From positions 2,322 to 66,321 of the IMG/VR virus record IMGVR_UViG_2529292920_000018: a stretch of DNA of 64,000 bases. The stretch is one strand, 5' to 3'. The notes under the pieces were generated by a model. It made no database searches. It worked only from the letters and a program-made list of their open reading frames with translations, and had not been told where the DNA came from. The stretch is from a virus (Duplodnaviria; Heunggongvirae; Uroviricota; Caudoviricetes). A program made the translations under genes and the position numbers. Below are positions 2,305-37,318 of this stretch, piece after piece (the stretch's first letter is position 1; each line of letters starts with the position of its first letter).

Positions 2305-2901
2305 TCAGTGGGAGTGGTGGCTGGAGTTTTCGCCATCAGACAACATACTGCCCGTGGCATGGGCATTCCCTTTAATCTCGATATTGCCATGGATGGTCGC
2401 GGTAACACCTTCACCACCAGAACCCGCCATGCCTCCTTCGTAAATCAGCTTACCCCTGACACGCAGATCTCCGGTAAGTTCGGTTTCCGGTGCGTCAATC
2501 GTGGCTTTCTGTGTTTTCAATACCACATCAGCACCACACTCAATGACAATATGCTCAATGCCGCCCCGGATGGTCAGAGTGTGCGTCTTCCGGTTGTAGC
2601 TGTACTCTGCACCATCAGCAAACCGGGTTCCCCGGATATTTTTGTCACTGAACGGTGGTTTATCGACGTCTGAATACACCGCGCCCAGAATAACACCATC
2701 CTCGCCGTTGGCATCGAGCAGTACCTCAACCTGCTCCCCCACGTCAGGGAGCCAGTAATCTTTGTTATCCTGGGTATTGCGCTGCAGCACGTTAAGCCAG
2801 TTTGTGCGCAGGTTATCGCATTCAGGCAGACGAACGCGGGCCTGAACCCTGTCGGCATCAACGGCACTGACCGTACCGACCTGACGAGTGACACCAGTCA
2901 T
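2305..2901 (-). CDS. baseplate spike/assembly protein V-like
   Basis: 198-aa ORF between gpD-like and gpW-like genes; Gly-rich C-terminus. Confidence 0.75.
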   Translation of the reverse strand: MTGVTRQVGTVSAVDADRVQARVRLPECDNLRTNWLNVLQRNTQDNKDYWLPDVGEQVEVLLDANGEDGVILGAVYSDVDKPPFSDKNIRGTRFADGAEYSYNRKTHTLTIRGGIEHIVIECGADVVLKTQKATIDAPETELTGDLRVRGKLIYEGGMAGSGGEGVTATIHGNIEIKGNAHATGSMLSDGENSSHHSH

Positions 2902-4052
2902 TTTTTCTTCTCCTTAATCACCGTCGATGTACTGCCATCCGGGTGATAAACCGTGAGTTTCTGAGTTTTTTGTTTTTTCCCTCTTGTGACTGGCCCCCGT
3001 GCCACTTCCAGCTCTGTGGTGTAGCCGCTGTTACGGTCAAACGCATGGCGGGCAGTGGTTATGAGCCATGGCCCGGATAACTGCCCAAAACCCACCAGTT
3101 CAATTTTGTTGCCTGCTGTCAGTTGAGGTGTTCCCGTCAGCGTCAGGGAGCCGTTCTGCTGGTATTCGTTATGTCTGGCCAGTGCTGAATCCGCTTTAAT
3201 CCGGGCACTGTCCGGGTCGCTGACGCGGCTGTTAACTTTAAGTGAGTCAGCGCTGGTAACCTTACCACCTTTGAGCTTTTTGTCGCTTTCACGGGTACCA
3301 CCATCAGCTTCGTAGACGATCAGTTTTTTACTGCTGCTTTTCTGGTGTTTTACCTTTGCAGATTTATAGACCCGGTTGATGGTGTCACGCAGGGAAAAGC
3401 GGGCCACATCCTGCGGTTTTAACTGCCTGACCGGCTCCTGACTGCGCAGTGTGGCCAGATGAGAAAAAATCAGCTGGTCACTGACCACTTTCACTGCATA
3501 ACCATACTCGCTGGCCAGCCGGCGCAGAAAACCCACGTCGGTTTCAGCATACTGGGTCACCCGGTCGATTCTGATGGACTCAATGCTGCCCACCAGTTTC
3601 AGTCGGTGCTTTCTGGCAATCCGCCCCGCAACAGCTGCCAGCGTGGTGTTCTCAAAACCACGACTGGTTTTAGTCCGCAGGGCACTGTTAACCGAGGTGG
3701 CCACCCCACGGATAGAAACAACGGAAGCGGGCGAACTCACTTCGATCTCGTCTATAGAGAACGTACCGCAGGACAGCAGCTTCTCGCCCTGATAGCCCAT
3801 TTTCAGCGTCAGCGTGTCACCCTTGCCCGGATACCATTTATCCAGCCAGCGGCCATCGGTGTCGTCCAGCTCCACCTCAATGGTATCGGACTCATTTTTG
3901 ATGTTATCGCTCCAGGTCACACGGGTGACATAAGGCGCGATATCAGAGGTGATGTTTTTCTGCAGATACCACAAAGTGAACACCGGTGTCAGCACATCGC
4001 TGACGCCGGTTAACGCTGATGTGACTTGCGCAGTGCTGTTTATCTCAGCCAT
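2898..4052 (-). CDS. tail protein gpD-like (late control D family)
   Basis: 384-aa ORF; size and position match gpD / Mu P; full length, unlike the truncated P2-like copy at 33673. Confidence 0.75.
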   Translation of the reverse strand: MAEINSTAQVTSALTGVSDVLTPVFTLWYLQKNITSDIAPYVTRVTWSDNIKNESDTIEVELDDTDGRWLDKWYPGKGDTLTLKMGYQGEKLLSCGTFSIDEIEVSSPASVVSIRGVATSVNSALRTKTSRGFENTTLAAVAGRIARKHRLKLVGSIESIRIDRVTQYAETDVGFLRRLASEYGYAVKVVSDQLIFSHLATLRSQEPVRQLKPQDVARFSLRDTINRVYKSAKVKHQKSSSKKLIVYEADGGTRESDKKLKGGKVTSADSLKVNSRVSDPDSARIKADSALARHNEYQQNGSLTLTGTPQLTAGNKIELVGFGQLSGPWLITTARHAFDRNSGYTTELEVARGPVTRGKKQKTQKLTVYHPDGSTSTVIKEKKK

Positions 4053-4255
4053 GGGGCAATATCCTCTTCTGTACGGGCTTCTTCAGCCTCAATCACCGGG
4101 ATCAGTAACAACAGCCCGGAGGGCAGCACCGGCGTGATGGCCACGTGCGGATTGGCGGCAATAATCCGGGGATAGCCCAGCGGGTCACCGTAGTACTGCC
4201 ATGCCAGCGAATCCCAGCGCTCTCCGTCACGGGTAACATGTTCAAGAAACATCAC
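4040..4255 (-). CDS. tail protein X-like (LysM-like)
   Basis: 71-aa ORF with WQYYGDP motif resembling the P2 gpX family. Confidence 0.55.
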   Translation of the reverse strand: MMFLEHVTRDGERWDSLAWQYYGDPLGYPRIIAANPHVAITPVLPSGLLLLIPVIEAEEARTEEDIAPWLR

Positions 4256-5136
4256 ACACTCCTCGTCAGTATTCTGGCGGCCATTGCACTTAATCCCGGA
4301 GACATGCGGTTGAATGCTGTGCCGGCGGCGTTAAGCTGCCCGGAAACGGTATCCAGAGCACCTGCAATATTTCTTTTGTCCACACCACTCAGCGCAGACT
4401 GTGCCTGCTGTACATACGTGGCTGCTTCGCTGGCTGTTCTGGCCAGACTGATGGCATCGGGCATGGATTCAGAGAGTGCGTTAAACGCCGGAACACTTTT
4501 CCCCAGAGCCCCGGAGATATTACCCAGTCCGCTCATCAGCCCCGGCACACGGGTCAGTGCGACAACGGGGTTATCCTTCATTTTCTGTGTCACCCGAACG
4601 GCGCTGATAGTGGTCTGGAGTACAGACTGCGCCTGTTTCGCATAGTTGACGCCGTTGCGGATGAACTGCGCCACCCCTGAAGGTGAAGGTATGGCACCGG
4701 AGACCGCCCCGACACCCGGGAGCTTCGTGCGTATTGCCGGTGGTTGCAGAGGATTTTTCGGGTCACCGGTGTATTCCCGGAGAGACACGGTGGCACTGAC
4801 AGCCAGCACGTTGCCGGTACTGTCAGTCTGCTCGCTGGTTGCAGTCACATCGGTAATCACGAACCAGCCGCGATAGTCACCGTTGCCGAAGACCAGCGCC
4901 AGTGCCTGATGGGCTTTCATGGCTGTTCGCAGTCTCGCCAGCTCCACATCGGGTACACAATAATGCTGATGGAAAACCAGAGTTATCTGGATTTCGTCCA
5001 GCCTGTCGCCGACGAACTGCAGGCCAGGCTTACCCCCGATGCGGGCATGCTCCGCATAATCGACGCCGAACGTGGCCTCGAAGCCGTCCCAGTAGGTAAT
5101 CAGCTCAAACTCAATATCACCCAGTACGGCAAACAT
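4252..5136 (-). CDS. tail protein (gpU / Mu N DNA-circulation-like)
   Basis: 294-aa ORF immediately downstream of tape measure, in the position of Mu N / P2 U. Confidence 0.5.
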   Translation of the reverse strand: MFAVLGDIEFELITYWDGFEATFGVDYAEHARIGGKPGLQFVGDRLDEIQITLVFHQHYCVPDVELARLRTAMKAHQALALVFGNGDYRGWFVITDVTATSEQTDSTGNVLAVSATVSLREYTGDPKNPLQPPAIRTKLPGVGAVSGAIPSPSGVAQFIRNGVNYAKQAQSVLQTTISAVRVTQKMKDNPVVALTRVPGLMSGLGNISGALGKSVPAFNALSESMPDAISLARTASEAATYVQQAQSALSGVDKRNIAGALDTVSGQLNAAGTAFNRMSPGLSAMAARILTRSV

Positions 5137-8087
5137 CAGCGGTACTCCTTACGTTGTTTCTGAGCCAGCAGACGCTCCAGCATTTTTTCCAGCTCATGCA
5201 GACTCATATTCAGGGCACCAGTCAGTCCTGCAGGCGCTGTGGTTTCCCTGCCATTGAGGAAAAACTGAGGATTAAAGCTGACCTGGATACCACCAGACGT
5301 TCCACCGCCGGTTGCAGCTGCACCACGGCCTGAATATCCGGCAGCCAGGATTTCAGGCGAGGGGATACGGGGAACATCCGGTGTCATCTCATTTGCCAGA
5401 CGTTGCCCTGGTAAAATCGATGCCCGGGTGGAGAGCGGAATAGCGGGCATGGAAGACAAACTATTGATTACGGCTCCGATCGCATTTTTAGCAGACGACA
5501 TAAACCCATTGATATCGGGCAACGGCATACTGAAGCGAACACCTGAAGTGTTATCCCGTATTTCTGGCCCCTGGATGCTCACGGGCATTCTGGGGAGCAG
5601 TTCACTGGCCATTCGCTGCCCGGCCAGAGCTGCAAGCGGAGTGGTCCGCTGCAGGCCAATGGCGGCCCCCTGCGCGATATTGTCACCAAAGCCCATAAAC
5701 ACGCGGCTCGGCGAATGAATGCCCAGCTTTTCGCTGAACCAGCCACTGATGCTGTCACCCATTCCGGTTACACTGGATTTGAGCGACTCCCATTTGTTTT
5801 TGATACCGTTAATCAGACCATCGACAAGATGGCCACCGAAGTCGGTAAACTTTGCCGGCAGATCAACACCAAGATATTTCAGCGCAGCTGCAAAGGCTTT
5901 ATAGAGCAGACCTGCCGGCGACCAGTTAATCAGCAGCTTACCAGTTCCCGCGATACCGCCGTTAAAGGCTTCCTGAATGTCAGCCCAGCACTGTTTAAAC
6001 CAGCTACTGATGCTGTCACCCATTCCGGTTACACTGGATTTGAGCGACCCCCATTTGTTTTTGATACCGTTAATCAGACCGTCGATAAGATGGCCACCGA
6101 AGTCGGTGAACTTTGCCGGCAGAGCAACGCCGAAATATTTCAGCGCAGCCGCAAAGGCTTTATAGAGCAGGCCTGCCGGCGACCAGTTAATCAGTAACTT
6201 ACCAATTCCCACAATGCCGCCGTTAAAGGCTTCCTGAATGTCTGCCCAGCGCTGTTTAAACCAGCCACTGACTGCCCCCCAGTTGCGGTAGATAAGGTAA
6301 GCTGCTGCCGCGACAGCGGTGATAACGAGACCGATGGGATTCATCATCAGCGCACGTCCAATCCAGAGAACAGCACGTCCGGCGAGCATAATTCCGCGAA
6401 CCAGCCCCCCGGAGAGCACGCCACTCAGTGTTCTGGCTCCTCTGGCGACGGCGCTAAATCCGGTCACCAGCCAGCGGAGCTTACCGCCTTGCCCCAGTGC
6501 GAGCGACAGACGAAGCCAGTTGGCCCGAAGTAAAACAGCATTTTTCCAGACACTTACAAAGGGGGAAATAAGGAGATTCAGCCCCAGTTTGAGACCAACA
6601 GTCGCTATCTTAATCGCAAGGAGCGCACTGATGAGCTTAAAAGCCCCACTGACAAATTGCGGGTGAGTCGCTACCCAGTGTTTTGCCCCCTGAATGAGTG
6701 GAAGCAGTTCCTGAGTCAAAGAAATAAAAGATGGAGCTAATTGATCGCCCAGCGTAATTGCCAGATCGCGACTGCTGACCATAAGTGTTTTAGTGGCTTC
6801 AAGGGGAGATTTCAGCCGCTGATCATAAGCACTGGCAAGCAAATCGTTATCCGCAGCCCTGAGAGCACCGGCACGGATCTCTCGATATCTGTCCATGTTG
6901 GCCAGCATCGGGCGGATAAATGCCATGACCTGCATATCCGCGAACATATCGCCCAGACCAAAGTTTTTCGCCAGAGCCTGAAGTGCCTCATCTCTTGCCG
7001 TATCATTCTTTATTTTCATGGCTGATTTGAAGCCGGCCAGCGCTTCGGGGCTTTTGGCATTGAGGTAACGTTCTATAACACTCAACATCCCTTCAATCGG
7101 AGAGATCCCCGCAGCTTTATAACTCGCAATAGATCCCTGCAAATCAATACCCAGATCAGCAAACTGTTTCTGAGTATCGCGGGCAAAAATTTTGGTAAGA
7201 AAGTTTTTAAAATTATTGGCTGCTTCGTCGGTGGAACCTGCACCGATTTTTGCTATCTGGAGACTGGCCCCTATTTCAGCAACAGCCTCTTTTCCACTGG
7301 CAATACCCGCCATCATTGGGGCCAGGGACTGCATCCACTTGACCTGATCCGGGATTTCAAATGACCCCTGGTCACCGGCATAAGCCATAATATTCTGAAC
7401 GGCACCAAAATCTCTGGCCGCACCTTTCAGGGAGTTTTGCCAGACTGCGGCCACTTTTGCCCAGTCCTGAGCAGACGTGCGTGTTGCCGTTGCCGCGCGG
7501 GCAATATCCGGCATCAGAAAACCGATATCTGACACATTATCAATATTGTCGCTGATGAGTGAACCCACCGCCTCCTGCAGCTCATCCTGATACTGATTGT
7601 ATTTAAGCGCCCAGCCTTTTATCTGTCCGGCAAGTGCATCCCGCGTTTTATTGTCATATTTTGCGGTGATCGACATATCAATCATTTTGTCCTGAAAAGA
7701 CATGGACTGCTGAACGGCAGGGGAAACCGTATGATAAACAGTCTGTGCCATGCCATACGCTTCAATCCCCTGACCATACAGCGCCATGCGGTTAGCTTTC
7801 AGCGCATCACTGGTAGCGGATGCCGCTGACAGACGGCGCTGCTGGCGCTCAATTTGCTCCATGGTGCGGCTTACCCGCAGCAGCTCGCTGTTGAGATGCT
7901 GCATCCGGGAAGAACCCAGTTGACCATAACGTTCTGTTGCACGGGTTAAAGCGTTCTGACGTTCCTGCAGGCGGCGTGAGGTATCGCTCAGGGAATCAAG
8001 CGCACGGCGGGTACCGCTCATTGCAGAACGGAATGTGCTACCAATCATCCCGCCGATAACAACGCCGACTGAAAACTGTCCCGACAT
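5136..8087 (-). CDS. tail tape measure protein
   Basis: 983-aa ORF, Ala/Gly-rich with predicted coiled coil; contains an internal 86-aa tandem duplication. Confidence 0.85.
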   Translation of the reverse strand: MSGQFSVGVVIGGMIGSTFRSAMSGTRRALDSLSDTSRRLQERQNALTRATERYGQLGSSRMQHLNSELLRVSRTMEQIERQQRRLSAASATSDALKANRMALYGQGIEAYGMAQTVYHTVSPAVQQSMSFQDKMIDMSITAKYDNKTRDALAGQIKGWALKYNQYQDELQEAVGSLISDNIDNVSDIGFLMPDIARAATATRTSAQDWAKVAAVWQNSLKGAARDFGAVQNIMAYAGDQGSFEIPDQVKWMQSLAPMMAGIASGKEAVAEIGASLQIAKIGAGSTDEAANNFKNFLTKIFARDTQKQFADLGIDLQGSIASYKAAGISPIEGMLSVIERYLNAKSPEALAGFKSAMKIKNDTARDEALQALAKNFGLGDMFADMQVMAFIRPMLANMDRYREIRAGALRAADNDLLASAYDQRLKSPLEATKTLMVSSRDLAITLGDQLAPSFISLTQELLPLIQGAKHWVATHPQFVSGAFKLISALLAIKIATVGLKLGLNLLISPFVSVWKNAVLLRANWLRLSLALGQGGKLRWLVTGFSAVARGARTLSGVLSGGLVRGIMLAGRAVLWIGRALMMNPIGLVITAVAAAAYLIYRNWGAVSGWFKQRWADIQEAFNGGIVGIGKLLINWSPAGLLYKAFAAALKYFGVALPAKFTDFGGHLIDGLINGIKNKWGSLKSSVTGMGDSISSWFKQCWADIQEAFNGGIAGTGKLLINWSPAGLLYKAFAAALKYLGVDLPAKFTDFGGHLVDGLINGIKNKWESLKSSVTGMGDSISGWFSEKLGIHSPSRVFMGFGDNIAQGAAIGLQRTTPLAALAGQRMASELLPRMPVSIQGPEIRDNTSGVRFSMPLPDINGFMSSAKNAIGAVINSLSSMPAIPLSTRASILPGQRLANEMTPDVPRIPSPEILAAGYSGRGAAATGGGTSGGIQVSFNPQFFLNGRETTAPAGLTGALNMSLHELEKMLERLLAQKQRKEYR

Positions 8088-8162: not shown

Positions 8163-8420
8163 CTATGATTTGTCGCCGTACTCGCTTTTTATTTGCTCTT
8201 CAGCCTGCTCCAGCCACATCTCCAGATCGTCAGTATCGAGGGCATCAATCTCCCCCGGCTGAAACCGGAACCATCTCGCCAGCAGCCCCTGCGCCTGCGT
8301 CAGCGCCCTGGTTGCTCTCACCCATCCCCGTGATGAGCTGAAATCGTTTCTGTAACTGCAGGTAATCAGCCAGATCCATATTGTCGAGATCTTCCGGGAG
8401 AAGACCAGTACTGCGGGCAA
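8163..8420 (-). CDS. putative frameshift extension of tail assembly chaperone
   Basis: Overlapping alternative frame ending with acidic tail ...FQPGEIDALDTDDLEMWLEQAEEQIKSEYGDKS just before tape measure. Confidence 0.4.
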   Translation of the reverse strand: MPAVLVFSRKISTIWIWLITCSYRNDFSSSRGWVRATRALTQAQGLLARWFRFQPGEIDALDTDDLEMWLEQAEEQIKSEYGDKS

Positions 8421-8580
8421 TCAGCGGTTCGTCCCAGTCTGCCGGGTTTTTGCTGATTTTGCGCACCTGCTTCAGGTCTTTTACCGTCAGGCGTTTCAGT
8501 TCAACCAGCTCAATTCTGGTGCCTGCAGCAGTGGTGAAGGGATAAGACAATTTAAAAGTATCGGATGGGGTCTGTGACAT
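8245..8580 (-). CDS. tail assembly chaperone (upstream frame of a putative frameshifted pair)
   Basis: 111-aa ORF between tube and tape measure; overlapped by ORF 8163..8420 in another frame. Confidence 0.55.
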   Translation of the reverse strand: MSQTPSDTFKLSYPFTTAAGTRIELVELKRLTVKDLKQVRKISKNPADWDEPLIARSTGLLPEDLDNMDLADYLQLQKRFQLITGMGESNQGADAGAGAAGEMVPVSAGGD

Positions 8581-8961: not shown

Positions 8962-9483
8962 TCAGCCCCCGATATTGATACGGTAGTCAGTCAGTTGATC
9001 AACACCGCCGACCCGGAAGATGTTGGCCAGATAGTCCAGTTGCAGCAGCTCTTCACCATCCAGTACCTGTCTGATATACGTGCAGGTGAAGCTACTGGAG
9101 AACTCGGCGTTCTCGTGCTGTTTGAACGTCCCCAGCGGGTTCTTCTTGAACATAATCGTCAGGAAGGTGACCAGCGGGATTTCGTCAATCAGCCCCTGCG
9201 AGCTGTAGCGCTGGACGCTGGAACGACACTGCAGTGCCAGCGACCTGTACGGGTTCGCGGCAGACAGCATCGCATCGCGGTAAAAGCTGTTCCATTTGAT
9301 TTCGCCTTCCAGTTTGTCAAAACCAGCCGGGAGTTCCACCTTACCCACCATCCCCAGCGCCTTGTGTTCCTGCATAATCATGGAGACATCGGGGAGTTTA
9401 ACTTCCTCAGCCCGTCCCAGCAGGTTAGTACCATCCAGATAGATGTTGGCATTCGTGATGCGGTTTATCTCAATCTTTGACAT
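8962..9483 (-). CDS. tail tube protein
   Basis: 173-aa ORF immediately downstream of sheath. Confidence 0.8.
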   Translation of the reverse strand: MSKIEINRITNANIYLDGTNLLGRAEEVKLPDVSMIMQEHKALGMVGKVELPAGFDKLEGEIKWNSFYRDAMLSAANPYRSLALQCRSSVQRYSSQGLIDEIPLVTFLTIMFKKNPLGTFKQHENAEFSSSFTCTYIRQVLDGEELLQLDYLANIFRVGGVDQLTDYRINIGG

Positions 9484-10910
9484 CAGTTGCCCCCTTTCAG
9501 GGTTAACAGGTATTCCGAGGTGATCTCAGTCTCAAACGTCAGTCGCTCCAGCGGCGGTGGTGGCGTATATTTGTAGCTCAGCAACAGGTGCCCGGCGGCC
9601 AGCTCCGTCTCCGGATTGCGGGCCGGATCAAACCAGCAACGGAAGCCCAGTACCGCACCATCACCAGTCATTTTGCGACCGTAGGCGTTGACCGACTCCG
9701 TCAGTGCATCAATCAGCGCCTGAGTAATCGGCATGTCGATGTACTGCTGGCTGAAATAACGAATGGACTCGTTGATCACATCACCGGTGCGGCGAACGTT
9801 CTCAAAGTTACGCATATGGGTGACCGTTGGCCATGCTGCCGTCCGGTTACCCCACAGACGAAGGCCGCTGCCGTAACTGCTGAATACCGTGGTGATCCCC
9901 TGTTCGTTAAGCAGGTTCACCTCACTCTGCGGGTCATCAATCATCGCGGACAGCTGGCGCTCCACGCCGGTGATCCCCAGAATCTCCTGATTGGAGGATG
10001 ACCACCAGTAGCCCTTGTCCAGATCGACTCTGGCACGCAGACCTGCTGCACGCTGGCTGAGCGGCTCCAGACGCTCTGTGTTTGTCACCGGGTCATATAC
10101 CTTCACATGCGGATAGCACAGACGGACGCGGTCGGAGCTGGTATTGAAGTTGATGGTGCCTTCCGGGCCACGACCTGCCAGAGCCTGTGCAAAGGTGGTA
10201 CCGACAGGCGCATCAATGTAGGTTACCGCGCCCAGCTTCTCTGCCATGGCGATAAGCTCAACTGCGACACTCTTCTGGGTGCAGAACACCGGCGCAATCA
10301 GAATTTTGGCGAAATAGCCGTACAGGTTGAAGCTGTCGTTAAGCAGCTTCATGCCGGTTCGGTTTCCGGCGCTGTTCACCCCGCCGATGATGTCCGCCGC
10401 AGTCACCTTCGACGGGTCCGCGTACTCATAGCTCACCTTCACGCTGCCACCGGCCTCAATAGCCTTGCCCAGGTTCGTGAGCACACCCGCCTGCGCATCA
10501 ACACGGTAGTCCGTGTTCGCCGTGTGGGTGGTGCTGCCTTCACTGTTTTTCACCACCACATTAGCGACAACCGGATGCGCCAGTCTGGCCTGCCCTGTCG
10601 ATTTGTCAAAGGTAACCACCTCATCCTCGATCGCCGTTTTATGTTTCGCCGGGTCGAGGACGTTAATGACCAGAACGGTGCCTGCACCATGGTCATAAAT
10701 CGCATCCAGCGCCTGCGGAATGGTAAAGCCGGTGAACTGGCTGCCAAATGCCGCTGCGTCTTTCTCAGACAGGCACTGTACCAGCGTATTGACATCCCCC
10801 ATCGGGGCGGTACCAATCAGGCCAATAACGGCAGATTTCACCGTTTTAACCGGGCGGGCTCCGTTTTCCACCTCAATGGTTTCGGGACCATGCAGATAGT
10901 TAGCTGCCAT
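9483..10910 (-). CDS. contractile tail sheath protein
   Basis: 475-aa ORF; size and position typical of a tail sheath. Confidence 0.85.
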   Translation of the reverse strand: MAANYLHGPETIEVENGARPVKTVKSAVIGLIGTAPMGDVNTLVQCLSEKDAAAFGSQFTGFTIPQALDAIYDHGAGTVLVINVLDPAKHKTAIEDEVVTFDKSTGQARLAHPVVANVVVKNSEGSTTHTANTDYRVDAQAGVLTNLGKAIEAGGSVKVSYEYADPSKVTAADIIGGVNSAGNRTGMKLLNDSFNLYGYFAKILIAPVFCTQKSVAVELIAMAEKLGAVTYIDAPVGTTFAQALAGRGPEGTINFNTSSDRVRLCYPHVKVYDPVTNTERLEPLSQRAAGLRARVDLDKGYWWSSSNQEILGITGVERQLSAMIDDPQSEVNLLNEQGITTVFSSYGSGLRLWGNRTAAWPTVTHMRNFENVRRTGDVINESIRYFSQQYIDMPITQALIDALTESVNAYGRKMTGDGAVLGFRCWFDPARNPETELAAGHLLLSYKYTPPPPLERLTFETEITSEYLLTLKGGN

Positions 10911-13378: not shown

Positions 13379-14494
13379 TTACAGGCAGCGTGCGACAGCA
13401 GCCTCATAGCTGATGCCTTCTTTTTTGGACAGGGCCACTGCTTTCTGATGCAGGGCCAGACGCTCAGGATCGGCTTCCGCAAACTCTGCCACATCCACCT
13501 TCACCGTGTCGCCGACACGCTCTTTTGTGGCCTGTTCGGCGAAATTCATCACCGGCTCCCCGTCGGAGAGCAATGAACGAAAGGCGGTGGCCAGCGGTGT
13601 GCGGCTTTCCCCCTCAGCAAACTCCACCGGCTTGTCGCCACCGGCAACGGCATCCAGCAGGGCAACCACCACGGAGGAGGCGCGGGGAGCCAGACGGCCC
13701 TCTGCGACCAGTTTTTCTGCAAAGGCCACATTGTCCTTATGCAGTTGCTCCTGTCTGACCTGTGCATCACGCGCATCGCGATCAGCAGCCTGCTGCTTCA
13801 GGCGGCGGTTCTCCTCCTGAAGGGCTTCAATCTCTTCTTTTGTCATCGATGATTCCTCGTTACTTGCGGAAGACGGCCCCGGGCCTGTCTCACTGAATTG
13901 TGCACCTGCTGCATCCTGCGACAGTGTGTCGCGGTACGCCTCTTCGCGCAGACTGTTGAGCTGCCATTCCGGCAGGACTTTTTCTGCCTCGTCCAGACTG
14001 AAGCGGGCGATCAGAAAATCGCGCAGCTTTCCCCACAGGGAGGCATTCGTGATGGCCTGCCAGTCGGCGAACTCCACCACACCTTCTTCCTGCTCACTGA
14101 AGGACACCTGTTTCAGCCCCTTGACGGAAGGTGGCTGTGCCCCGAGAAAGCCCACATGGCGAAGGTAGAGCACGCCGGGCTTCGGATTGGACGGTGAATC
14201 CGGGAGGTAGAAAGAGGCGGACACTTTTTTGAATCGTCCGTCGGTGACCATCTCAGCAAACTGCGGGTCCAGCTGGGCAGGCTCTGCCATCAGATCGACG
14301 CCGCTGAGCGACAGGGCTTTCACCCAGCCCCACGCCGGGTCTTCCGTTCTGGGATGACCAATCACGAGTGGTGCTTCATGGACGGACGGGTCATAGGCTT
14401 TCACGCAGGCGGCAAGATCGTCTGGCGTGAACGGCAGTTTTTTGCCGTGCATATCGGTATGAGTACCGGCTTTAAAAATGTGAATGGCTGACAT
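13379..14494 (-). CDS. head maturation protease / scaffold (Mu I-like)
   Basis: 371-aa ORF with charged coiled-coil C-terminal half typical of I/Z protease-scaffold. Confidence 0.75.
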   Translation of the reverse strand: MSAIHIFKAGTHTDMHGKKLPFTPDDLAACVKAYDPSVHEAPLVIGHPRTEDPAWGWVKALSLSGVDLMAEPAQLDPQFAEMVTDGRFKKVSASFYLPDSPSNPKPGVLYLRHVGFLGAQPPSVKGLKQVSFSEQEEGVVEFADWQAITNASLWGKLRDFLIARFSLDEAEKVLPEWQLNSLREEAYRDTLSQDAAGAQFSETGPGPSSASNEESSMTKEEIEALQEENRRLKQQAADRDARDAQVRQEQLHKDNVAFAEKLVAEGRLAPRASSVVVALLDAVAGGDKPVEFAEGESRTPLATAFRSLLSDGEPVMNFAEQATKERVGDTVKVDVAEFAEADPERLALHQKAVALSKKEGISYEAAVARCL

Positions 14495-25500: not shown

Positions 25501-26421
25501 ATGGGACGTACCAAATCACCGATTAACACTGAACTGAACGCCGATGTACCGCTGTCGGATGATCTCAACGTCAGCCTGAATGCCATGACACAGCATCGCA
25601 TGGAGATCATGCAGCAGTTTGGTGATGGACTGCCTTATGAACGTGAACGCATCGTTCACGAAGCACGTTTTTATATGGCGCAGAGTGCTGAATCTATGTT
25701 GGAAGCGGGTAAGCGGCTGATCATCTTAAAAGAAAATGAACCGCATGGTGATTTCACAAATATTCTGGAAAACGACCTCGGATTAGCACCACAGGTAGCT
25801 CGTCGCATGATGCAGGCCAGCGTGAAATTTCTCGGCAATGGAGATGAACAGCCAAAACGCTCAGCGCTGAGCGTTTTGGGAAAAACCAAGTTATATGAAC
25901 TGATGGTTCTGGATGACGAAGAACTCGACGCATTAGCTGATGGTGGAACCGTCGCCGGTGCAACGCTTGATGATATTGATCGCATGACCAGCCGCGAACT
26001 GAAGGCCGCCCTGCGTGAAGCGCGCGAAACCAACGCAGCTCAGCAACAGGTGCTTGCCGGAAAGGACGAAAAAATCAACGAACTGGCCACAAAACTGGAG
26101 AAGAAATCGCGCCTGCAACCTCCGCCGCCAGACGAAGAACTGAAAAAATTGCGGGCGGAAGTGACGGCATTAGCGGTTGAGGCCGAATCGGCTATCGCCG
26201 TCCGGCTGTCCAGTGTTTTTGAGACCCTGTGTGAATACTGCACCAAAAACATGATCGATACCCCCAGAGATTTCATGGCCGGTCTGGTCTGCCAGATTGA
26301 ACGCAGTGTTCATGCATTACGTGAGACGTTTGACCTTGAGGCCGCTCCATCGGGTAACGATGCCCCCGCCTGGCTGACCGAACCGGAACCTGAAATCAAC
26401 CGACCGGAGGATATGCAGTAA
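25501..26421 (+). CDS. hypothetical early protein, acidic coiled-coil
   Basis: 306-aa ORF between ner and transposase. Confidence 0.45.
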   Translation: MGRTKSPINTELNADVPLSDDLNVSLNAMTQHRMEIMQQFGDGLPYERERIVHEARFYMAQSAESMLEAGKRLIILKENEPHGDFTNILENDLGLAPQVARRMMQASVKFLGNGDEQPKRSALSVLGKTKLYELMVLDDEELDALADGGTVAGATLDDIDRMTSRELKAALREARETNAAQQQVLAGKDEKINELATKLEKKSRLQPPPPDEELKKLRAEVTALAVEAESAIAVRLSSVFETLCEYCTKNMIDTPRDFMAGLVCQIERSVHALRETFDLEAAPSGNDAPAWLTEPEPEINRPEDMQ

Positions 26422-26738
26422 TGAATACGAATAACACACAAAATACCCTGATGGACAGCCCGGAGGCACTGGGGCACGCACTGTGTAATCTGCTGCCGGA
26501 GATGGTGCAGGGTTTCCGCGTGGTGACCCCTTCCGGTGAAATCTGCGTACCCGCACAGGAGACGCACCCGTTTGTACTGACGATGGAGGTGATGCTGATG
26601 CAGCAGATAAGACGTCTGCAGAATCAGTCAGCATTACGCCCGGTAGTTGCACCGCAACCGGTAAATACCGTGGTGAAAACCTGCGATGGCGAAACACTGT
26701 GCGACCTCGCCAGAAAAATTGCCGCCAGAATCGGATAA
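26421..26738 (+). CDS. hypothetical protein
   Basis: 105-aa ORF overlapping the upstream stop (ATGA). Confidence 0.4.
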   Translation: MNTNNTQNTLMDSPEALGHALCNLLPEMVQGFRVVTPSGEICVPAQETHPFVLTMEVMLMQQIRRLQNQSALRPVVAPQPVNTVVKTCDGETLCDLARKIAARIG

Positions 26739-26753
26739 CAGGGAAGACAAGCT

Positions 26754-28523
26754 ATGACCCCGGCACTGACTGAAAAACTGGTTGAAACAGCCCGCGCGGC
26801 ACGTGACGCGGGGCATGGTAAACGCGGTGCAATATACGACGCTGCCTGTGCTGAACTTGGCATGTCCCGCGCCACTCTGCTGCGCAGGCTGAAGGAGGTA
26901 TCTGTGACTGATAAACGCAAAAAACGCGCCGATGCCGGGCGCAGCGCCCTGACCCGCGACGAAGCCGCGCTGATATCTGCCACACTGCGTGAGGCCACCC
27001 GCAAGAACGGTAAGCGTCTCTATTCCATCGCAGATGCAGTGGAAACCCTGCGGGCTAACGGCTTTATCACCGCAGGCAGAACAGATGAAACCACCGGTGA
27101 GTTTTTCCCGTTGTCTGAAGATGCCATCAGCCGTGCTCTGCGTAACTATGGCCTGCACCCGGAACAACTGGATGCCCCTGCACCACATACCGAAGTGGCC
27201 AGTCTGCATCCCAATCATGTCTGGCAGATTGACGCCTCACTCTGCACGCTTTACTACCTGAGCAATGGACATAAAGGGCTGCAGGTGATGGACAGCGCGA
27301 AGTTCTACAAGAACAAGCCCGCTAACCTTGCCCGTATCGCCAGTGACCGCGTGTGGAGTTACGAGATTACCGACCATGCCAGCGGCTGGATTTACGTTGA
27401 GTATGTGACGGGCGCGGAATCAGGTGAGAACCTGTGTTCTGTGCTTATCAACGCCATGCAGGAGCGTGGCGGCGCAGACGTGCTGCACGGCGTGCCGAAA
27501 ATACTCTATCTCGACCCCGGCTCGGCAAACACCGCGGGTATGACGAAAAACATGTGCCGCTCACTGGGCATCGACCTGATAGCGCACAAGCCGCATAACG
27601 CCCGCGCCACCGGACAGGTGGAAAAGGCGCGTGACATTATCGAACGCAAGCTGGAGCCGGGTCTGAAGTTCCGGCCGGTTCACAGTCTGGAAGAACTCAA
27701 CGCGCTGGCCGCGAAATGGCGCAGCCACTTTAACGCCACGGCTGTTCACAGCCGCCACGGTAAAACCCGCACGGATATCTGGCTGAAGATTACTGCTGAG
27801 CAGCTGAAAAAAGCGCCTTCCGTTAAGGTATGTCGTGAACTGGCTGTGGCGGCACCAGAACTCCGCAAAGTCACGCCAAAACTTCGTGTCTCGTTCCGGG
27901 GCACTGAATTTGACGTATCAACGGTACCGGGCGTACTGGTTGGTGAAAAACTGATGATTACCCGTAACCCATGGCGCAGCGATGTGGCACAGGTGGTTCT
28001 GACTGGTGAGGACGGCCACGAGACGTTCTTCCTGGTCGAAGAGGTCAGAAAGAACGAGTTTGGCTTTGCTGAAGGCGCGGCGGTATTTGGCGAAAGTTAC
28101 AAAGCCCTGCCGGAAACCCCGGCACAGATGGCGGCAAAAGAAACCGAAGCGCTGGTTACCGGTACAGACAACGCCGCAGATGCAGCCGCCGCACGCAAGG
28201 CGAAGGCGCTGCCGTTCGGCGGGCGGCTTGACCCGTATAAACATATCGACGACACCACACTTCCGGCCTATATGCCGAAGCGTGGTCAGGCCTCTGACGT
28301 ACGCGGGCCGCGCACTGAACAACGTCCCATGACTCATGTGGAGGCCGCGAAAGCCCTGCGCGATAAGTTCAGCACCGACGGCCTTACCTGGACGCCGGAA
28401 CATTACCGCCAGTTAACGGCACAGTACCCGGACGGCGTACCGGAAGCCGCACTGGATGAAGTCATGGCCACGCTGACCACACCGGCCCGCAGCAGTGTTA
28501 TCAGCATTGTTAACGGCAACTGA
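26754..28523 (+). CDS. DDE transposase (Mu A-like, integrase-core fold)
   Basis: 589-aa ORF with HVWQIDASL and YLDPGSANT catalytic-core-like motifs; followed by an AAA+ target-selection ATPase. Confidence 0.8.
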   Translation: MTPALTEKLVETARAARDAGHGKRGAIYDAACAELGMSRATLLRRLKEVSVTDKRKKRADAGRSALTRDEAALISATLREATRKNGKRLYSIADAVETLRANGFITAGRTDETTGEFFPLSEDAISRALRNYGLHPEQLDAPAPHTEVASLHPNHVWQIDASLCTLYYLSNGHKGLQVMDSAKFYKNKPANLARIASDRVWSYEITDHASGWIYVEYVTGAESGENLCSVLINAMQERGGADVLHGVPKILYLDPGSANTAGMTKNMCRSLGIDLIAHKPHNARATGQVEKARDIIERKLEPGLKFRPVHSLEELNALAAKWRSHFNATAVHSRHGKTRTDIWLKITAEQLKKAPSVKVCRELAVAAPELRKVTPKLRVSFRGTEFDVSTVPGVLVGEKLMITRNPWRSDVAQVVLTGEDGHETFFLVEEVRKNEFGFAEGAAVFGESYKALPETPAQMAAKETEALVTGTDNAADAAAARKAKALPFGGRLDPYKHIDDTTLPAYMPKRGQASDVRGPRTEQRPMTHVEAAKALRDKFSTDGLTWTPEHYRQLTAQYPDGVPEAALDEVMATLTTPARSSVISIVNGN

Positions 28524-28533
28524 GGAGGGAAAC

Positions 28534-29700
28534 ATGCTGGTACTGAAGCAGCAACTGAAAGAGGCCCGTATTCCACAGGCGGTGGTGGCGAGAGCTGTCG
28601 ATGTTTCTGAGGCCACGCTGGCCCAGATTGTGAATCATAACGCGTGGCCCCGCACCAGCCCCGGAGAAGTGCGCCGGCGTCTTGCGTCCTGGCTGGAAAG
28701 TCAGGGGATTGATACAACGAAGAGTTTTGATGCTGTACAGGGCGCGGCCACGCCCCGTACAGCGGGTACCACAGATAAAACGAGCCTCAGTGAGGAAGAG
28801 AATATGTTACTCAAAAAACAGGTGTTATTTCCAGCAACCAAAAAAGCGTTTGGTCTTTTCCGTGACCCGTTCGCCGACGAAGCCATGCAGGGTTCTGATG
28901 ATGTGTTCACCACCCCGGATATTCGCTACGTGCGTGAGGCGTTGTACCAGACAGCCCGTCATGGTGGGTTTATGGCCGTCATCGGTGAGTCCGGTGCGGG
29001 TAAATCCACGCTGCGCCGCGACCTGACTGAACGTATCAACCGCGAGAATGCGCCGGTAATTGTTATCGAGCCATACATCATCGCTATGGAAGACAACGAT
29101 GTGAAAGGGAAAACCCTGAAGGCAGCAGCGATTGCCGAAGCCATTATCAGTACCATCGCACCACTGGAAAGCATCAGACGCAGTCAGGACGCCCGCTTTC
29201 GCCAGTTGCATCGCGTCCTGAAAGACAGCAGCCAGGCGGGGTTCAGCCACGTTCTGGTGATTGAGGAGGCCCACAGTCTGCCCATTCCGACACTGAAACA
29301 CCTCAAACGCTTTTTTGAGCTGGAGTCCGGTTTCAAAAAACTGCTGTCCATCGTGCTGATTGGCCAGCCGGAACTGGCGACAAAACTGTCTGAACGCAAT
29401 ATGGAAGTCCGTGAAGTCGTTCAGCGCTGTGAGGTGGTCGAACTTCTGCCTCTGGACAATAACCTTGAAGAGTTTCTGACGTTCAAACTGCAACGGGCCG
29501 GTAAACAACTGACGGACATTATGGACGCCAGCGCAGTGGATGCCATACGTGCCCGCCTGAGCAATCCGGGAAGTCATCGTAAAAATATGGTCAGCCTGCT
29601 GTATCCGCTGGCCGTCAGTAACCTGGTAATAGCCGCCATGAATCTGGCCGCTGAAATCGGGGTTCCACAGGTCAACGCTGACGTTGTCAAAGGGGTTTAA
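28534..29700 (+). CDS. transposition ATPase (Mu B / TniB-like AAA+)
   Basis: Walker A GESGAGKST, Walker B VLVIEEAH; start at ATG 28534 with GGAGG upstream. Confidence 0.8.
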   Translation: MLVLKQQLKEARIPQAVVARAVDVSEATLAQIVNHNAWPRTSPGEVRRRLASWLESQGIDTTKSFDAVQGAATPRTAGTTDKTSLSEEENMLLKKQVLFPATKKAFGLFRDPFADEAMQGSDDVFTTPDIRYVREALYQTARHGGFMAVIGESGAGKSTLRRDLTERINRENAPVIVIEPYIIAMEDNDVKGKTLKAAAIAEAIISTIAPLESIRRSQDARFRQLHRVLKDSSQAGFSHVLVIEEAHSLPIPTLKHLKRFFELESGFKKLLSIVLIGQPELATKLSERNMEVREVVQRCEVVELLPLDNNLEEFLTFKLQRAGKQLTDIMDASAVDAIRARLSNPGSHRKNMVSLLYPLAVSNLVIAAMNLAAEIGVPQVNADVVKGV

Positions 29701-34377: not shown

Positions 34378-34856
34378 TATCCCGCCCCCGTCATACCCGT
34401 GAATTTAGTCGCCATACTGCCAGCCTTACCGATGAGCGATTCCGCCTGTTTACCGATATCGCCATAAAGCGCGGCCAGTGATTCATCAACGCGGGTGAGC
34501 GACAGCGTAAAATCAATTTTCCGGGGTGTGCCATCTGCAAAGAAAATACTCCCTGTTTCACTCACCTTGCTGATGACATACATGCCGTAAATCATGCCGG
34601 TGCCATCCAGCAACGGCCACGCCCGCCCCTCCTCTGCCATCAGCCTGAGCGTGGTCATCGTCAGCTTGCCGCCGGTCAGTTCGGGATAAAGCACACCGGC
34701 AAGCGTGATGTTTTCCTCACCCACACCGAGAAACTGAAAAGCGTCCCGTTTACCGATACGGGAATTTGACGGCCAGCGATAATCTGATTCACGCTGCATG
34801 GTCTGGTGTGGCAGCGTCTGGCGCATAAAAACAAACATACCTAACGCGAGCATCAT
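34377..34856 (-). CDS. U: tail protein U
   Basis: 159-aa ORF between T and D as in P2. Confidence 0.75.
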
Positions 34857-34870
34857 TTTTCGTCACCTCC

Positions 34871-37318
34871 TTAACCGTCATGCATCATGCTGGCACGGGC
34901 GCGCGCACGTTTATCCCGCTCGTATTTTTCGAGCGCATCCTGTAACTGGCGGTCGAGCTGTGTCCCCGGCGCAGTACCACCCGTCAGGCTGATGTGATAT
35001 TCGTTTTTACTCTGGTCTACATAAGAGCGGCCAGCCGGTGCCGTGACCGGCTGATAAGCCTGATAACCTGCATAAGAGCTGGTCGCCGGAATATAACCAC
35101 CGCTGCCATACGTGGCGGCTTGAGTTCTGGCGGCGGTCTGGTCAAGTGTGTCTGACTCTTTGTTGATAACACCGAGTTTTTCCAGTACCCAGTCAATACC
35201 ACTGCGCAGTTTGTTGAACGCATTAAGCGGCAGCATCAGCGCGTCAGCCAGTGCCTGCCCAAACATGACGCCCGTGTCACGGCAACGGTTCAGGGTGTCC
35301 TGGGTGGCTTTGACCGGGGCAATCAGGTTTTTAAACCACTGCCACGCGGCCTGTAACTTTTCACCCAGCCAGTCAAACACCGGTTTAAGTGGCGTGAACA
35401 GTTCCCCCACCGGCGCAAATGCCGCTTTCAGCCCTTCCACCACACCGCCAAAGAATGCGCTGACAGGCTCCCAGTATTTACGGATAAGCAACGCCCCGGC
35501 GACAATTGCAGCCACCACGGCCACAACCGGCCAGCTAATCGCCCCGATGGCGGTTATAACAGCACTGCCAACCGTCGTGAAGATTGCCCCCATTGCGCCT
35601 GCTGCCGCGATGATGGCATTGATGCCGGTGATAACCGGCCAGGCTACGAGGCCAATGGCACCGATGACACCAATCAGTGCCAGTGCACCACCGACAATGA
35701 TGCCGATGGTTGACGCCAGTGATTTGTTTTTCTGGATCCAGCCGTCGAGTTTTAACACATACTTTGTGGCCGTCTGCGTGAGATTACGCAGTGCGCCTTC
35801 CTGCTGGTCAAACAGGTCAGTCCCCACCGCCTCATAAGCGGACTGAAACTCCTTAAAGTCACCGCCGAGGTTGTCCTGCATGATATTTACCAGCTCTGCG
35901 GTCTTCCCGTCTGAGGCTTTAAACGCAGCGGTCAGTTTGTCCAGCTTTCCGGTTGAGGCGGCAGTCATCAGCACAGCGGCGGCTGAGCTGGCCTCCTCCC
36001 CGAAAATGGTTTTCATGTATTCAGCCTGCTGGGCAGTACCGAGCCGGTTTTTCTCAAAACTGGCCTGCATTTCTTTCAGAATGGTAAATATTGGCCGGGT
36101 GTTTCCCTTGCTGTCTGAGGTTTTCACTCCAAGCTCTTTGAGTGCATCCCATGCTTTTCCCGTCGGTGCCTGCAGGCGGCTTAACACGGCACGGCTTCCC
36201 GTCCCCGCCATTGAGCCTGTGATTTTTGCATCATGCAGCGCCCCGACCATTGCGGCAGTTTCTTCAATGCTGACACCGGCATTTTTTGCCACAGGTGCGG
36301 CATAGGTCAGCGCATCGCTCATGCCGTCAAAATCGGCGGCGGTTTTGTTCATCGTCATGGAGAGAACATCCCCGATATGAGCGACCTTATCGTTTGAAAG
36401 CTGAAAGGCGGATTTCATCCCCATCAGCAGGGCGGCGTTTTCTTCCATCGTGCGGCGGTTCGCCAGCGCCATATTCAGCGTGACCGGCGTTGCCGCCTGA
36501 ATGGCATCAACATCCCCACCCGCTTTCGCGATGATTATCTGTGCACCGGCCGCATCATCCGCCGAGGCGGCGGTATTGTCGCCGAGCTGGCGCGCCTGTT
36601 TGCGTAGTGCGGTCATTTCGGCGGAGTCTTTTGCCACTCCGAGCACGGCCTGCAATTCTGAGTTTTTCTGCGCAAACTCATAACCGGGCATCAGCAACTT
36701 AACTCCGGTCATCGTTCCCGCCGCCGCAATCCCCACACCGGCAGCGCCTACTGAGGCCATATTTCCGGCCAGTTCCTTTCCGGCCTGATAACGCTGTTTG
36801 ACTGCGTTAAGTTTTGCCTGTTGCGCACTGACACGCGCCAGCGCGTCGCGCTGACGGTTAAGCTGTGCGGTGGTTTCACTGATACGGTTTTTCAGTCCCT
36901 GCTCATCATGTGCAAGATTGCGGGTATTAATTCCCACAGCGGCCAGTTCCCGCTGCTGGCGTTTAACGGAATCTGTCAGGCGGTTATATTTCGCCTGTAA
37001 GTCCTCCGCCGCACGCTTTGCGGATTCCAGCACTTTCGCCTGACCACGGGTCGGACGTTCGGTGTTTTTAAACTGTGTGGCAAGGGCTTCGGCCTCCTGC
37101 CGTGCCTTTTCAAGTGCATGACCAGTCACGGCGAGCTGTGCACTGGTCTTGCGGAATCCCTCAATACGGGATGCCTGACCGTTCAGCTCGCGCAGTGATT
37201 TTTGTGTTTCCCGGATATCCCCCGACAGCGATTTGCTCGCTGTGCGGATGGATTTAAACGGACGGGATGCCTGGTCAACAGCCCTGAGCAATACCTGTAA
37301 TTTTACATTGTTACTCAT
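34871..37318 (-). CDS. T: tail tape measure protein
   Basis: 815-aa Ala/Gly-rich ORF. Confidence 0.85.
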   Translation of the reverse strand: MSNNVKLQVLLRAVDQASRPFKSIRTASKSLSGDIRETQKSLRELNGQASRIEGFRKTSAQLAVTGHALEKARQEAEALATQFKNTERPTRGQAKVLESAKRAAEDLQAKYNRLTDSVKRQQRELAAVGINTRNLAHDEQGLKNRISETTAQLNRQRDALARVSAQQAKLNAVKQRYQAGKELAGNMASVGAAGVGIAAAGTMTGVKLLMPGYEFAQKNSELQAVLGVAKDSAEMTALRKQARQLGDNTAASADDAAGAQIIIAKAGGDVDAIQAATPVTLNMALANRRTMEENAALLMGMKSAFQLSNDKVAHIGDVLSMTMNKTAADFDGMSDALTYAAPVAKNAGVSIEETAAMVGALHDAKITGSMAGTGSRAVLSRLQAPTGKAWDALKELGVKTSDSKGNTRPIFTILKEMQASFEKNRLGTAQQAEYMKTIFGEEASSAAAVLMTAASTGKLDKLTAAFKASDGKTAELVNIMQDNLGGDFKEFQSAYEAVGTDLFDQQEGALRNLTQTATKYVLKLDGWIQKNKSLASTIGIIVGGALALIGVIGAIGLVAWPVITGINAIIAAAGAMGAIFTTVGSAVITAIGAISWPVVAVVAAIVAGALLIRKYWEPVSAFFGGVVEGLKAAFAPVGELFTPLKPVFDWLGEKLQAAWQWFKNLIAPVKATQDTLNRCRDTGVMFGQALADALMLPLNAFNKLRSGIDWVLEKLGVINKESDTLDQTAARTQAATYGSGGYIPATSSYAGYQAYQPVTAPAGRSYVDQSKNEYHISLTGGTAPGTQLDRQLQDALEKYERDKRARARASMMHDG

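Follow-up and report, generated by a model that had tools for sequence, protein, structure and literature searches.

A copy-variable, in-frame tandem repeat in the tape measure gene of a BcepMu-like Escherichia coli prophage, and its likely part in setting tail length

The stretch of viral DNA analysed here, 64,000 nucleotides (nt) long and referred to below as the window (positions 2,322 to 66,321 of IMG/VR record IMGVR_UViG_2529292920_000018, Caudoviricetes), belongs to a BcepMu-like prophage of Escherichia coli and carries, on the minus strand, a gene for a phage tail tape measure protein that contains a tandem repeat. The features at the centre of this study, with lengths in base pairs (bp) and amino acids (aa), are as follows.

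5136-8087, minus strand: tape measure gene, 983 aa, with PF10145, TIGR01760 and PHROG matches; contains the repeat.
6003-6263, minus strand: repeat unit 1, aa 609-695, 261 bp or 87 codons.
5742-6002, minus strand: repeat unit 2, aa 696-782, 261 bp or 87 codons; 92.7% DNA identity to unit 1.
6259-6271, no strand assigned: boundary motif AACCAGCCACTGA, on the coding strand TCAGTGGCTGGTT, Ser-Gly-Trp-Phe; just upstream of unit 1.
5998-6010, no strand assigned: boundary motif at the junction of units 1 and 2.
5737-5749, no strand assigned: boundary motif at the end of unit 2, which an earlier, first-pass annotation took for the start of a third copy.

Tandem Repeats Finder reports a single tandem array between window positions 3000 and 10000, at 5737-6271 (period 261, 2.0 copies, 92% matches, score 937), with no indels between the copies, and a direct-repeat search of the window pairs 5737-5997 head-to-tail with 5998-6258 at 93% identity, a 261-bp match that lies far beyond chance. 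The units adjoin without a spacer and in frame (261 = 87 x 3, with the open reading frame, or ORF, open throughout), each filling 87 codons in register on the coding, minus strand. The units are bounded by a motif of 13 nt (AACCAGCYACTGA on the plus strand, encoding Ser-Gly/Ser-Trp-Phe on the other), whose only three copies in the window start at 5737, 5998 and 6259, at a spacing of exactly 261 bp; chance would give 0.01 matches, and no shuffle reached 3. The first-pass annotation had described a 258-bp (86-codon) tandem duplication at 5720-6260, in frame within the tape measure and followed by the start of a third copy. A direct repeat does lie there, and its position within the 983-aa minus-strand ORF at 5136-8087 bears out the in-frame placement; the unit, however, is 261 bp (87 codons), and what recurs a third time is only the 13-nt boundary motif.

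The two units differ at 19 nt, approximately 11 of the differences being synonymous and 8 non-synonymous, so that 79 of the 87 residues are identical and 8 are changed (dS 0.21, dN 0.04). Because omega (dN/dS) between the units is 0.19, both copies are maintained as coding sequence, and their comparison indicates purifying selection on each. A sub-repeat inside the 87-aa unit, prompted by the resemblance of FNGGIVGIGKLLINW to FGGHLIDGLINGIKNKW, was also considered and rejected: no shift rose above background and the best circular shift scored -0.18.

Comparison of orthologous tape measure genes for copy number, which the first-pass annotation had proposed as a check, turned up alleles with one, two and three units.

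E. coli ECKH-100 (allele L002): gene of 2691 bp, 896 aa, one unit.
Window: gene of 2952 bp, 983 aa, two units.
EC11 (allele L004) and B20123 (allele L005): gene of 3213 bp, 1070 aa, three units.

The sequences flanking the array in the one-, two- and three-unit alleles are 96-99.8% identical to those of the window, and the single unit of strain 3-72 (L003, 821 aa), which represents a more distant lineage, shares 88.5% identity with each of the window units. Close homologues in the protein database fall into the same discrete length classes, 896, 983 and 1070 aa; a four-unit protein of 1157 aa is absent from the best-scoring database hits, where three-unit proteins outrank two-unit ones. The protein search hits also include a 1084-aa relative (P0018, 87% identity). 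All variants seen among the alleles examined consist of whole units, in frame, in one to three copies, and the reading frame is open in every one of them.

The frequency of each class was estimated with a three-unit query against 5,426 complete E. coli genomes, of which 634 matched; about 12% of complete E. coli genomes, strains of sequence type 131 (ST131) included, thus carry one of the alleles. Among 60 evenly spaced rows sampled from the matches, 13 (about 22%) have three units (span 1041-1043 bp), 40 (about 67%) have two (780-783 bp) and 6 (about 10%) have one (511-519 bp). Units were counted from the record spans; BLAST at 80% coverage with short-flank queries could not separate the copy classes, because alignments extended by the boundary motif came to exactly 80% and fragments were merged where the subject had fewer copies. 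The genome of ECKH-100 (NZ_CM181230.1) holds two related prophages, with a one-unit tape measure at 26066-28756 and a two-unit one around 1257802-1258584.

The three-unit genes of E. coli B20123 (L005 1203-4415) and E. coli O25:H4 18044 (L012) are called pseudogenes by RefSeq and the Prokaryotic Genome Annotation Pipeline (PGAP), with the wording 'incomplete; missing C-terminus' or as two fragments. The frame of L005 is open over all 1070 codons and the 1,641-bp stretch available for L012 has one stop-free frame; the calls are probably an annotation artefact produced by the extra repeat unit.

The history of these alleles can be read from the units themselves, each of which was typed at the 19 sites that separate window unit 1 from unit 2 (states 1 and 2). 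The single unit of L002 and L010 is a clean chimera, 111111111|2222222222, which crosses over somewhere between nt 93 and 114 of the unit; that of L008 has an exchange in the same region on a different parental background, and that of L009, 111111121111111111|2, switches between nt 215 and 259. In the three-unit alleles the first unit stays of unit-1 type and the last of unit-2 type, and the middle units vary: all unit-1 type in L004, 222222|1211111111111 in L005 and L012, and 22222222|11111111111 in L011. The first unit of L013, a two-unit allele of ST131 type, is a mosaic, 1|2222222|11111111111. As judged from these site patterns, the chimeric units are what unequal crossing-over, or slipped realignment, between units would yield as reciprocal products, and because the breakpoints differ among alleles, several independent contractions and expansions have taken place. 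The suggestion of the first-pass annotation that this is a recombination-prone site is therefore confirmed by the existence of one-, two- and three-unit alleles with chimeric units. As to the origin of the array, the single unit of the one-copy relatives L003 and L002 already has the microhomology TCAGTnnCTGGTT on either side, and the 13-nt microhomology TCAGTGGCTGGTT is the probable site of the founding duplication. Whole units have repeatedly been lost and gained by slippage or unequal homologous recombination between units, as the chimeric units show.

We also searched for the 87-aa unit outside this group of prophages. Against 1.84 billion representative proteins the unit found 604 clusters at an expect value (E) <= 1e-3; the best 150 of the 604 were re-scanned, and module copies were counted in the 91 proteins of at least 700 aa. 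One copy is present in 68 of these full-length representatives, two in 21, three in 1 and four in 1, and in the 23 of 91 with two to four copies the period is 55-118 aa and the identity between successive copies 9-69%. Comparison across these proteins indicates that the module has been amplified independently and recurrently in distant members of the tape measure superfamily. An alignment of 35 units has the consensus.F...W.....AF.GGI.GI..L..NWSPLGLFY.AF..VL..FG..LP..F..FG..I..GL..GI.......K..I...G, in which P29, P49 and G56 are invariant. No Pfam family was found for the unit, which gave chance-level hits alone (E > 0.001), and a single-sequence search of the whole protein against PDB sequences returned non-significant hits only. 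A profile of the unit, in turn, matches solved tail structures: 9d93 (E 8.9e-6), 80alpha gp57 (6v8i, 3e-4), 9m8o (Gp14, 5e-4) and 9h4p (1.2e-3). In these four tape measures, repeated motifs near the C-terminal 'GIHSPS' region match the C-terminal half of the unit, with the shared pattern F.dfG..iidGl.nGi...l..vk..i..lg..i; in contrast to the unit, they match over approximately 35 residues only and at very low identity, and the N-terminal NWSP half is not found there. AlphaFold2, run with the unit alignment, predicts four helices (residues 2-13, 17-26, 29-43 and 50-86) at a predicted local distance difference test score (pLDDT) of 56.5 and, given this low confidence, the model was used for secondary structure alone.

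The element that carries the array is, from its closest relatives and their annotated genes, a transposable, BcepMu-like prophage of E. coli whose contractile tail module is of P2 type. A 1,201-bp stretch around the repeat is 100% identical in E. coli MEI3O-23 and 99.7% identical in IAI39, and the closest phage record is Escherichia phage PhiKM (PQ738613), classified in Bcepmuvirus. In the MEI3O-23 prophage the Mor activator, Gam, an ExeA-family (MuB-like) ATPase and a DDE-type transposase (an integrase-catalytic-domain protein) are annotated, together with Mu-type head genes (DUF935 portal, head morphogenesis and virion morphogenesis proteins); the identities of the transposition and head genes rest on RefSeq annotation. 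The label 'Mu-like' in the first-pass annotation thus holds in the broad sense of BcepMu-like, on the strength of the Mor, Gam, MuB-like ATPase and DDE transposase genes of MEI3O-23. In this one strain the prophage splits a gene for a LysR-family regulator, whose N- and C-terminal fragments lie at its two ends (L007 7898-8668, roughly window 34500-35200, and L006 30047-30214), and the insertion is near the his operon and the yefM-yoeB toxin-antitoxin pair; the split gene is consistent with a transposition-type insertion. Just beyond window position 1, the MEI3O-23 sequence (L006 26366-29967) has a tail fibre gene followed by tail-fibre assembly genes on both strands, with a small 'recombinase family protein' beside them, and this region, outside the window, looks like a Gin/Cin-type invertible host-range segment.

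Among characterized relatives, the tape measures of BcepMu (in the region annotated gp43 / gp44) and phiE255 (gp18) are homologous to that of the window at 33-36% identity, and those of Klebsiella phage KP12 and Escherichia phage Phi06_2974 B at 64%. In the latter two, the match to 964 query residues covers just about 800 codons of the record, in 3 pieces, and this span suggests that they have one unit fewer than the window.

The proposal that the repeat-bearing gene encodes a tape measure is supported both by family membership and by gene order. PF10145 (PhageMin_Tail) matches aa 159-340 (E 2e-20, 74 bits against a cut-off of 33.2) and TIGR01760 (tape_meas_TP901) aa 119-493 (E 5e-16, 58.6 bits against a cut-off of 28.8); phrog_28, 'tail length tape measure protein', matches with an E of 8e-135, and in E. 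coli MEI3O-23, identical to the window over the 1,201 bp around the repeat, RefSeq names the gene product 'phage tail tape measure protein'. The neighbouring tail genes, and two hydrophobic segments of the protein itself, are the following.

9483-10910, minus strand: contractile tail sheath protein, PF04984 and PF17482.
8962-9483, minus strand: tail tube protein, FII type, PF04985 (E 2.9e-53); the polymer whose length the tape measure sets.
8245-8580, minus strand: tail assembly chaperone of gpE type, 111 aa, PF10109 Phage_TAC_7 (E 5.5e-21); upstream of the tape measure.
6564-6656, minus strand: hydrophobic segment, aa 478-508 (Kyte-Doolittle, 19-aa windows >= 1.6).
6288-6353, minus strand: hydrophobic segment, aa 579-600 (Kyte-Doolittle), immediately upstream of the repeat.
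4252-5136, minus strand: gpU-like tail protein, PF06995 (E 7.4e-39); directly downstream of the tape measure.
4040-4255, minus strand: gpX, in the tail gene order downstream of the tape measure.
2898-4052, minus strand: gpD, in the tail gene order downstream of the tape measure.

The order on the minus strand, sheath, tube, chaperone, tape measure, gpU, gpX and gpD, is that expected of a tape measure gene, and the first-pass identification of the gene stands on PF10145, TIGR01760 and this place between the gpE-type chaperone and gpU/X/D. Upstream of the tape measure, also on the minus strand, an ORF at 8163-8420 overlaps the chaperone ORF (8245-8580) in a second frame, and its counterpart in the relative L003 is labelled 'GpE family phage tail protein'. 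An overlapping pair of gpE-type ORFs is the usual arrangement for a programmed frameshift product, E+E'.

The array is an in-frame tandem duplication of a predicted helical, 87-residue module in the C-terminal half of the tape measure, which varies in copy number by unequal recombination, and we consider it likely that each unit adds tail length. In TP901-1, tail length drops linearly with the size of the deletion in the tape measure, by 0.145 nm per residue, and the estimate for lambda is 0.15 nm per residue (PMC5099701). In-frame deletions or duplications in such rulers shift tail length proportionally (PMC5099701; Katsura and Hendrix 1984 and Abuladze 1994, cited in PMC13585406); the tail length of the myophage T4 has also been reported to be under tape measure control (PMC13585406), and tandem repeats are recognized as contributing to tape measure length (PMC13585406, PMC3271669). 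By analogy, polymerization of the tail tube in the present element would stop at the end of the extended, helical tape measure, at the approximately 0.145-0.15 nm per residue taken from other phages. Each 87-aa unit would add 12.6-13.0 nm, and the 896-, 983- and 1070-aa alleles would give three discrete tail lengths. The rise of a tube ring is about 4 nm, and one unit would correspond to approximately three rings of tube and sheath. A longer tail, as the first-pass annotation expected from the duplication, is thus plausible.

Several considerations weigh against this interpretation or against the figures attached to it. The step in tail length is transferred from other phages, mostly siphophages, and would apply here by analogy. 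The model of the unit, at a pLDDT of 56.5, supports the presence of helices and not their arrangement; moreover, the conserved G16, P29 and P49 break the unit into four predicted helices, which could fold back on one another and add less length. Lastly, the census reports the best place per genome, in rank order, and leans to higher copy number in genomes with several prophages.

Of the alternatives, the one that fares best places the module outside the length-measuring stretch. The units would act after ejection, for example in a conduit across the periplasm and the inner membrane, and their number would tune the delivery of DNA or the compatibility with the host rather than the length of the tail. 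Tape measures are believed to be ejected and to help in the transit of DNA (PMC5099701), the units come directly after the hydrophobic segments at aa 478-508 and 579-600, and the strongly conserved motifs NWSP.GL.Y and LP..F..FG, with their invariant Pro and Gly residues, are more than a simple spacer needs. In TP901-1, however, the tail is also shortened when a region beside the hydrophobic segments is deleted, and only approximately 127 residues make no contribution to length (PMC5099701); moreover, the whole tape measure must fit the lumen of the tube before ejection, so that 87 extra helical residues need room. We regard a role confined to the conduit as unlikely, and in any event a conduit and a ruler are compatible, not mutually exclusive.

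A second alternative takes the variation in copy number as selectively neutral recombination noise in a mostly defective prophage, with no functional consequence. Many E. coli prophages are indeed defective, and some of the three-unit genes are labelled pseudogenes by PGAP at the National Center for Biotechnology Information (NCBI). Yet the frame is kept open in every allele examined, dN/dS between the units is 0.19, the close relative PhiKM has been deposited as a phage record, and the variants seen are whole-unit and in frame, in one to three copies, with no four-unit protein among the best-scoring hits. Neutrality appears to us distinctly improbable. We would give as little credence to a much stronger version of the ruler interpretation, in which unit number is a selected, reversible 'length dial': by unequal recombination, this widespread E. 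coli prophage lineage would switch its contractile tail, and with it the reach of the tube after contraction, among three quantized lengths; the alleles would be kept because host envelopes differing in capsule or O-antigen thickness favour different lengths, and the apparent ceiling of three units would be a functional limit.

Two small ORFs lie on the other strand of the repeat.

5719-5904, plus strand: antisense ORF, 61 aa, wholly inside the minus-strand tape measure gene; a by-product of the repeat.
5977-6165, plus strand: antisense ORF, 62 aa, the repeated counterpart of the ORF at 5719-5904.

Both are present as the first-pass annotation had described them, mirrored on the plus strand; the two end 261 bp from each other, with 258 bp between their ATG starts, and the latter spacing probably explains the unit length of 258 in that annotation. 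They are by-products of the repeated DNA: the 61 and 62 codons are open and begin with ATG, but the ORFs fall entirely within a gene with strong family support and are duplicated solely because the underlying DNA is duplicated, which makes it most improbable that they are real small genes.

Weakest of all, with next to no chance of being right, is the idea that the duplication was made in assembly, by collapse or expansion of a repeat, and that the real phage has one copy. Short-read assemblies do have trouble with repeats of this size, and a sequencing gap of 100 N interrupts the PhiKM record precisely within the tape measure repeat (L001 7915-8014; PQ738613.1 around 13435-13534), where the tape measure is annotated as two pieces. 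But the copies differ at 19 positions under purifying selection, a pattern that a duplicated pile-up of reads would not yield, the two-unit allele recurs at 99-100% identity in many independently assembled complete genomes, about two thirds of the 634 matching genomes carry two units, and the one- and three-unit alleles contain the chimeric junction units that biological recombination predicts. The worry of the first-pass annotation that the true copy number might be one is refuted by the differences between the copies and by this recurrence; the assembly of PhiKM was evidently defeated by the repeat, and the duplication is nonetheless biological.

The tape measure described here shares its gene position and family (PF10145 / TIGR01760) with the rulers of lambda (gpH), TP901-1 (TMP, its tape measure protein) and T4 (gp29). 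In those phages, however, the changes in length were engineered in the laboratory, whereas the one-, two- and three-unit series is natural and segregates among E. coli prophages; moreover, the tail of the present element is contractile and P2-like. As in the variable tandem repeats described in tape measures of Staphylococcus and other phages (Belcaid et al. 2011, PMC3271669), units are gained by duplication and lost. The units of Belcaid et al. 2011, however, have an 11-aa period (or 11-11-18) marked by Trp or Phe (PMC3271669), whereas the unit here has 87 aa, no detectable internal period, and the NWSP.GL.Y and LP..F..FG motifs. Staphylococcus phage SA3821 was considered as an experimental parallel and set aside as uninformative here, its tape measure changes lying outside the repeats and its tail length being unaltered.

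The literature that we searched holds no description of the tape measure polymorphism in E. coli BcepMu-like prophages, or of tail lengths there; the variation itself is of a known kind, of which the locus offers a clear example in nature. In practical terms, the repeat breaks short-read assemblies, as in the gap in PhiKM, and misleads automatic annotation, so that some intact three-unit genes are called pseudogenes. The tape measure is the standard example of a molecular ruler, and most of the evidence for it comes from engineered mutants of a few siphophages. The natural 896-, 983- and 1070-aa series, in near-isogenic backgrounds and with a contractile tail, allows the relation of nm per residue to be tested in a tail of the P2/BcepMu type and, beyond that, makes it possible to ask whether infection is affected by tail length.

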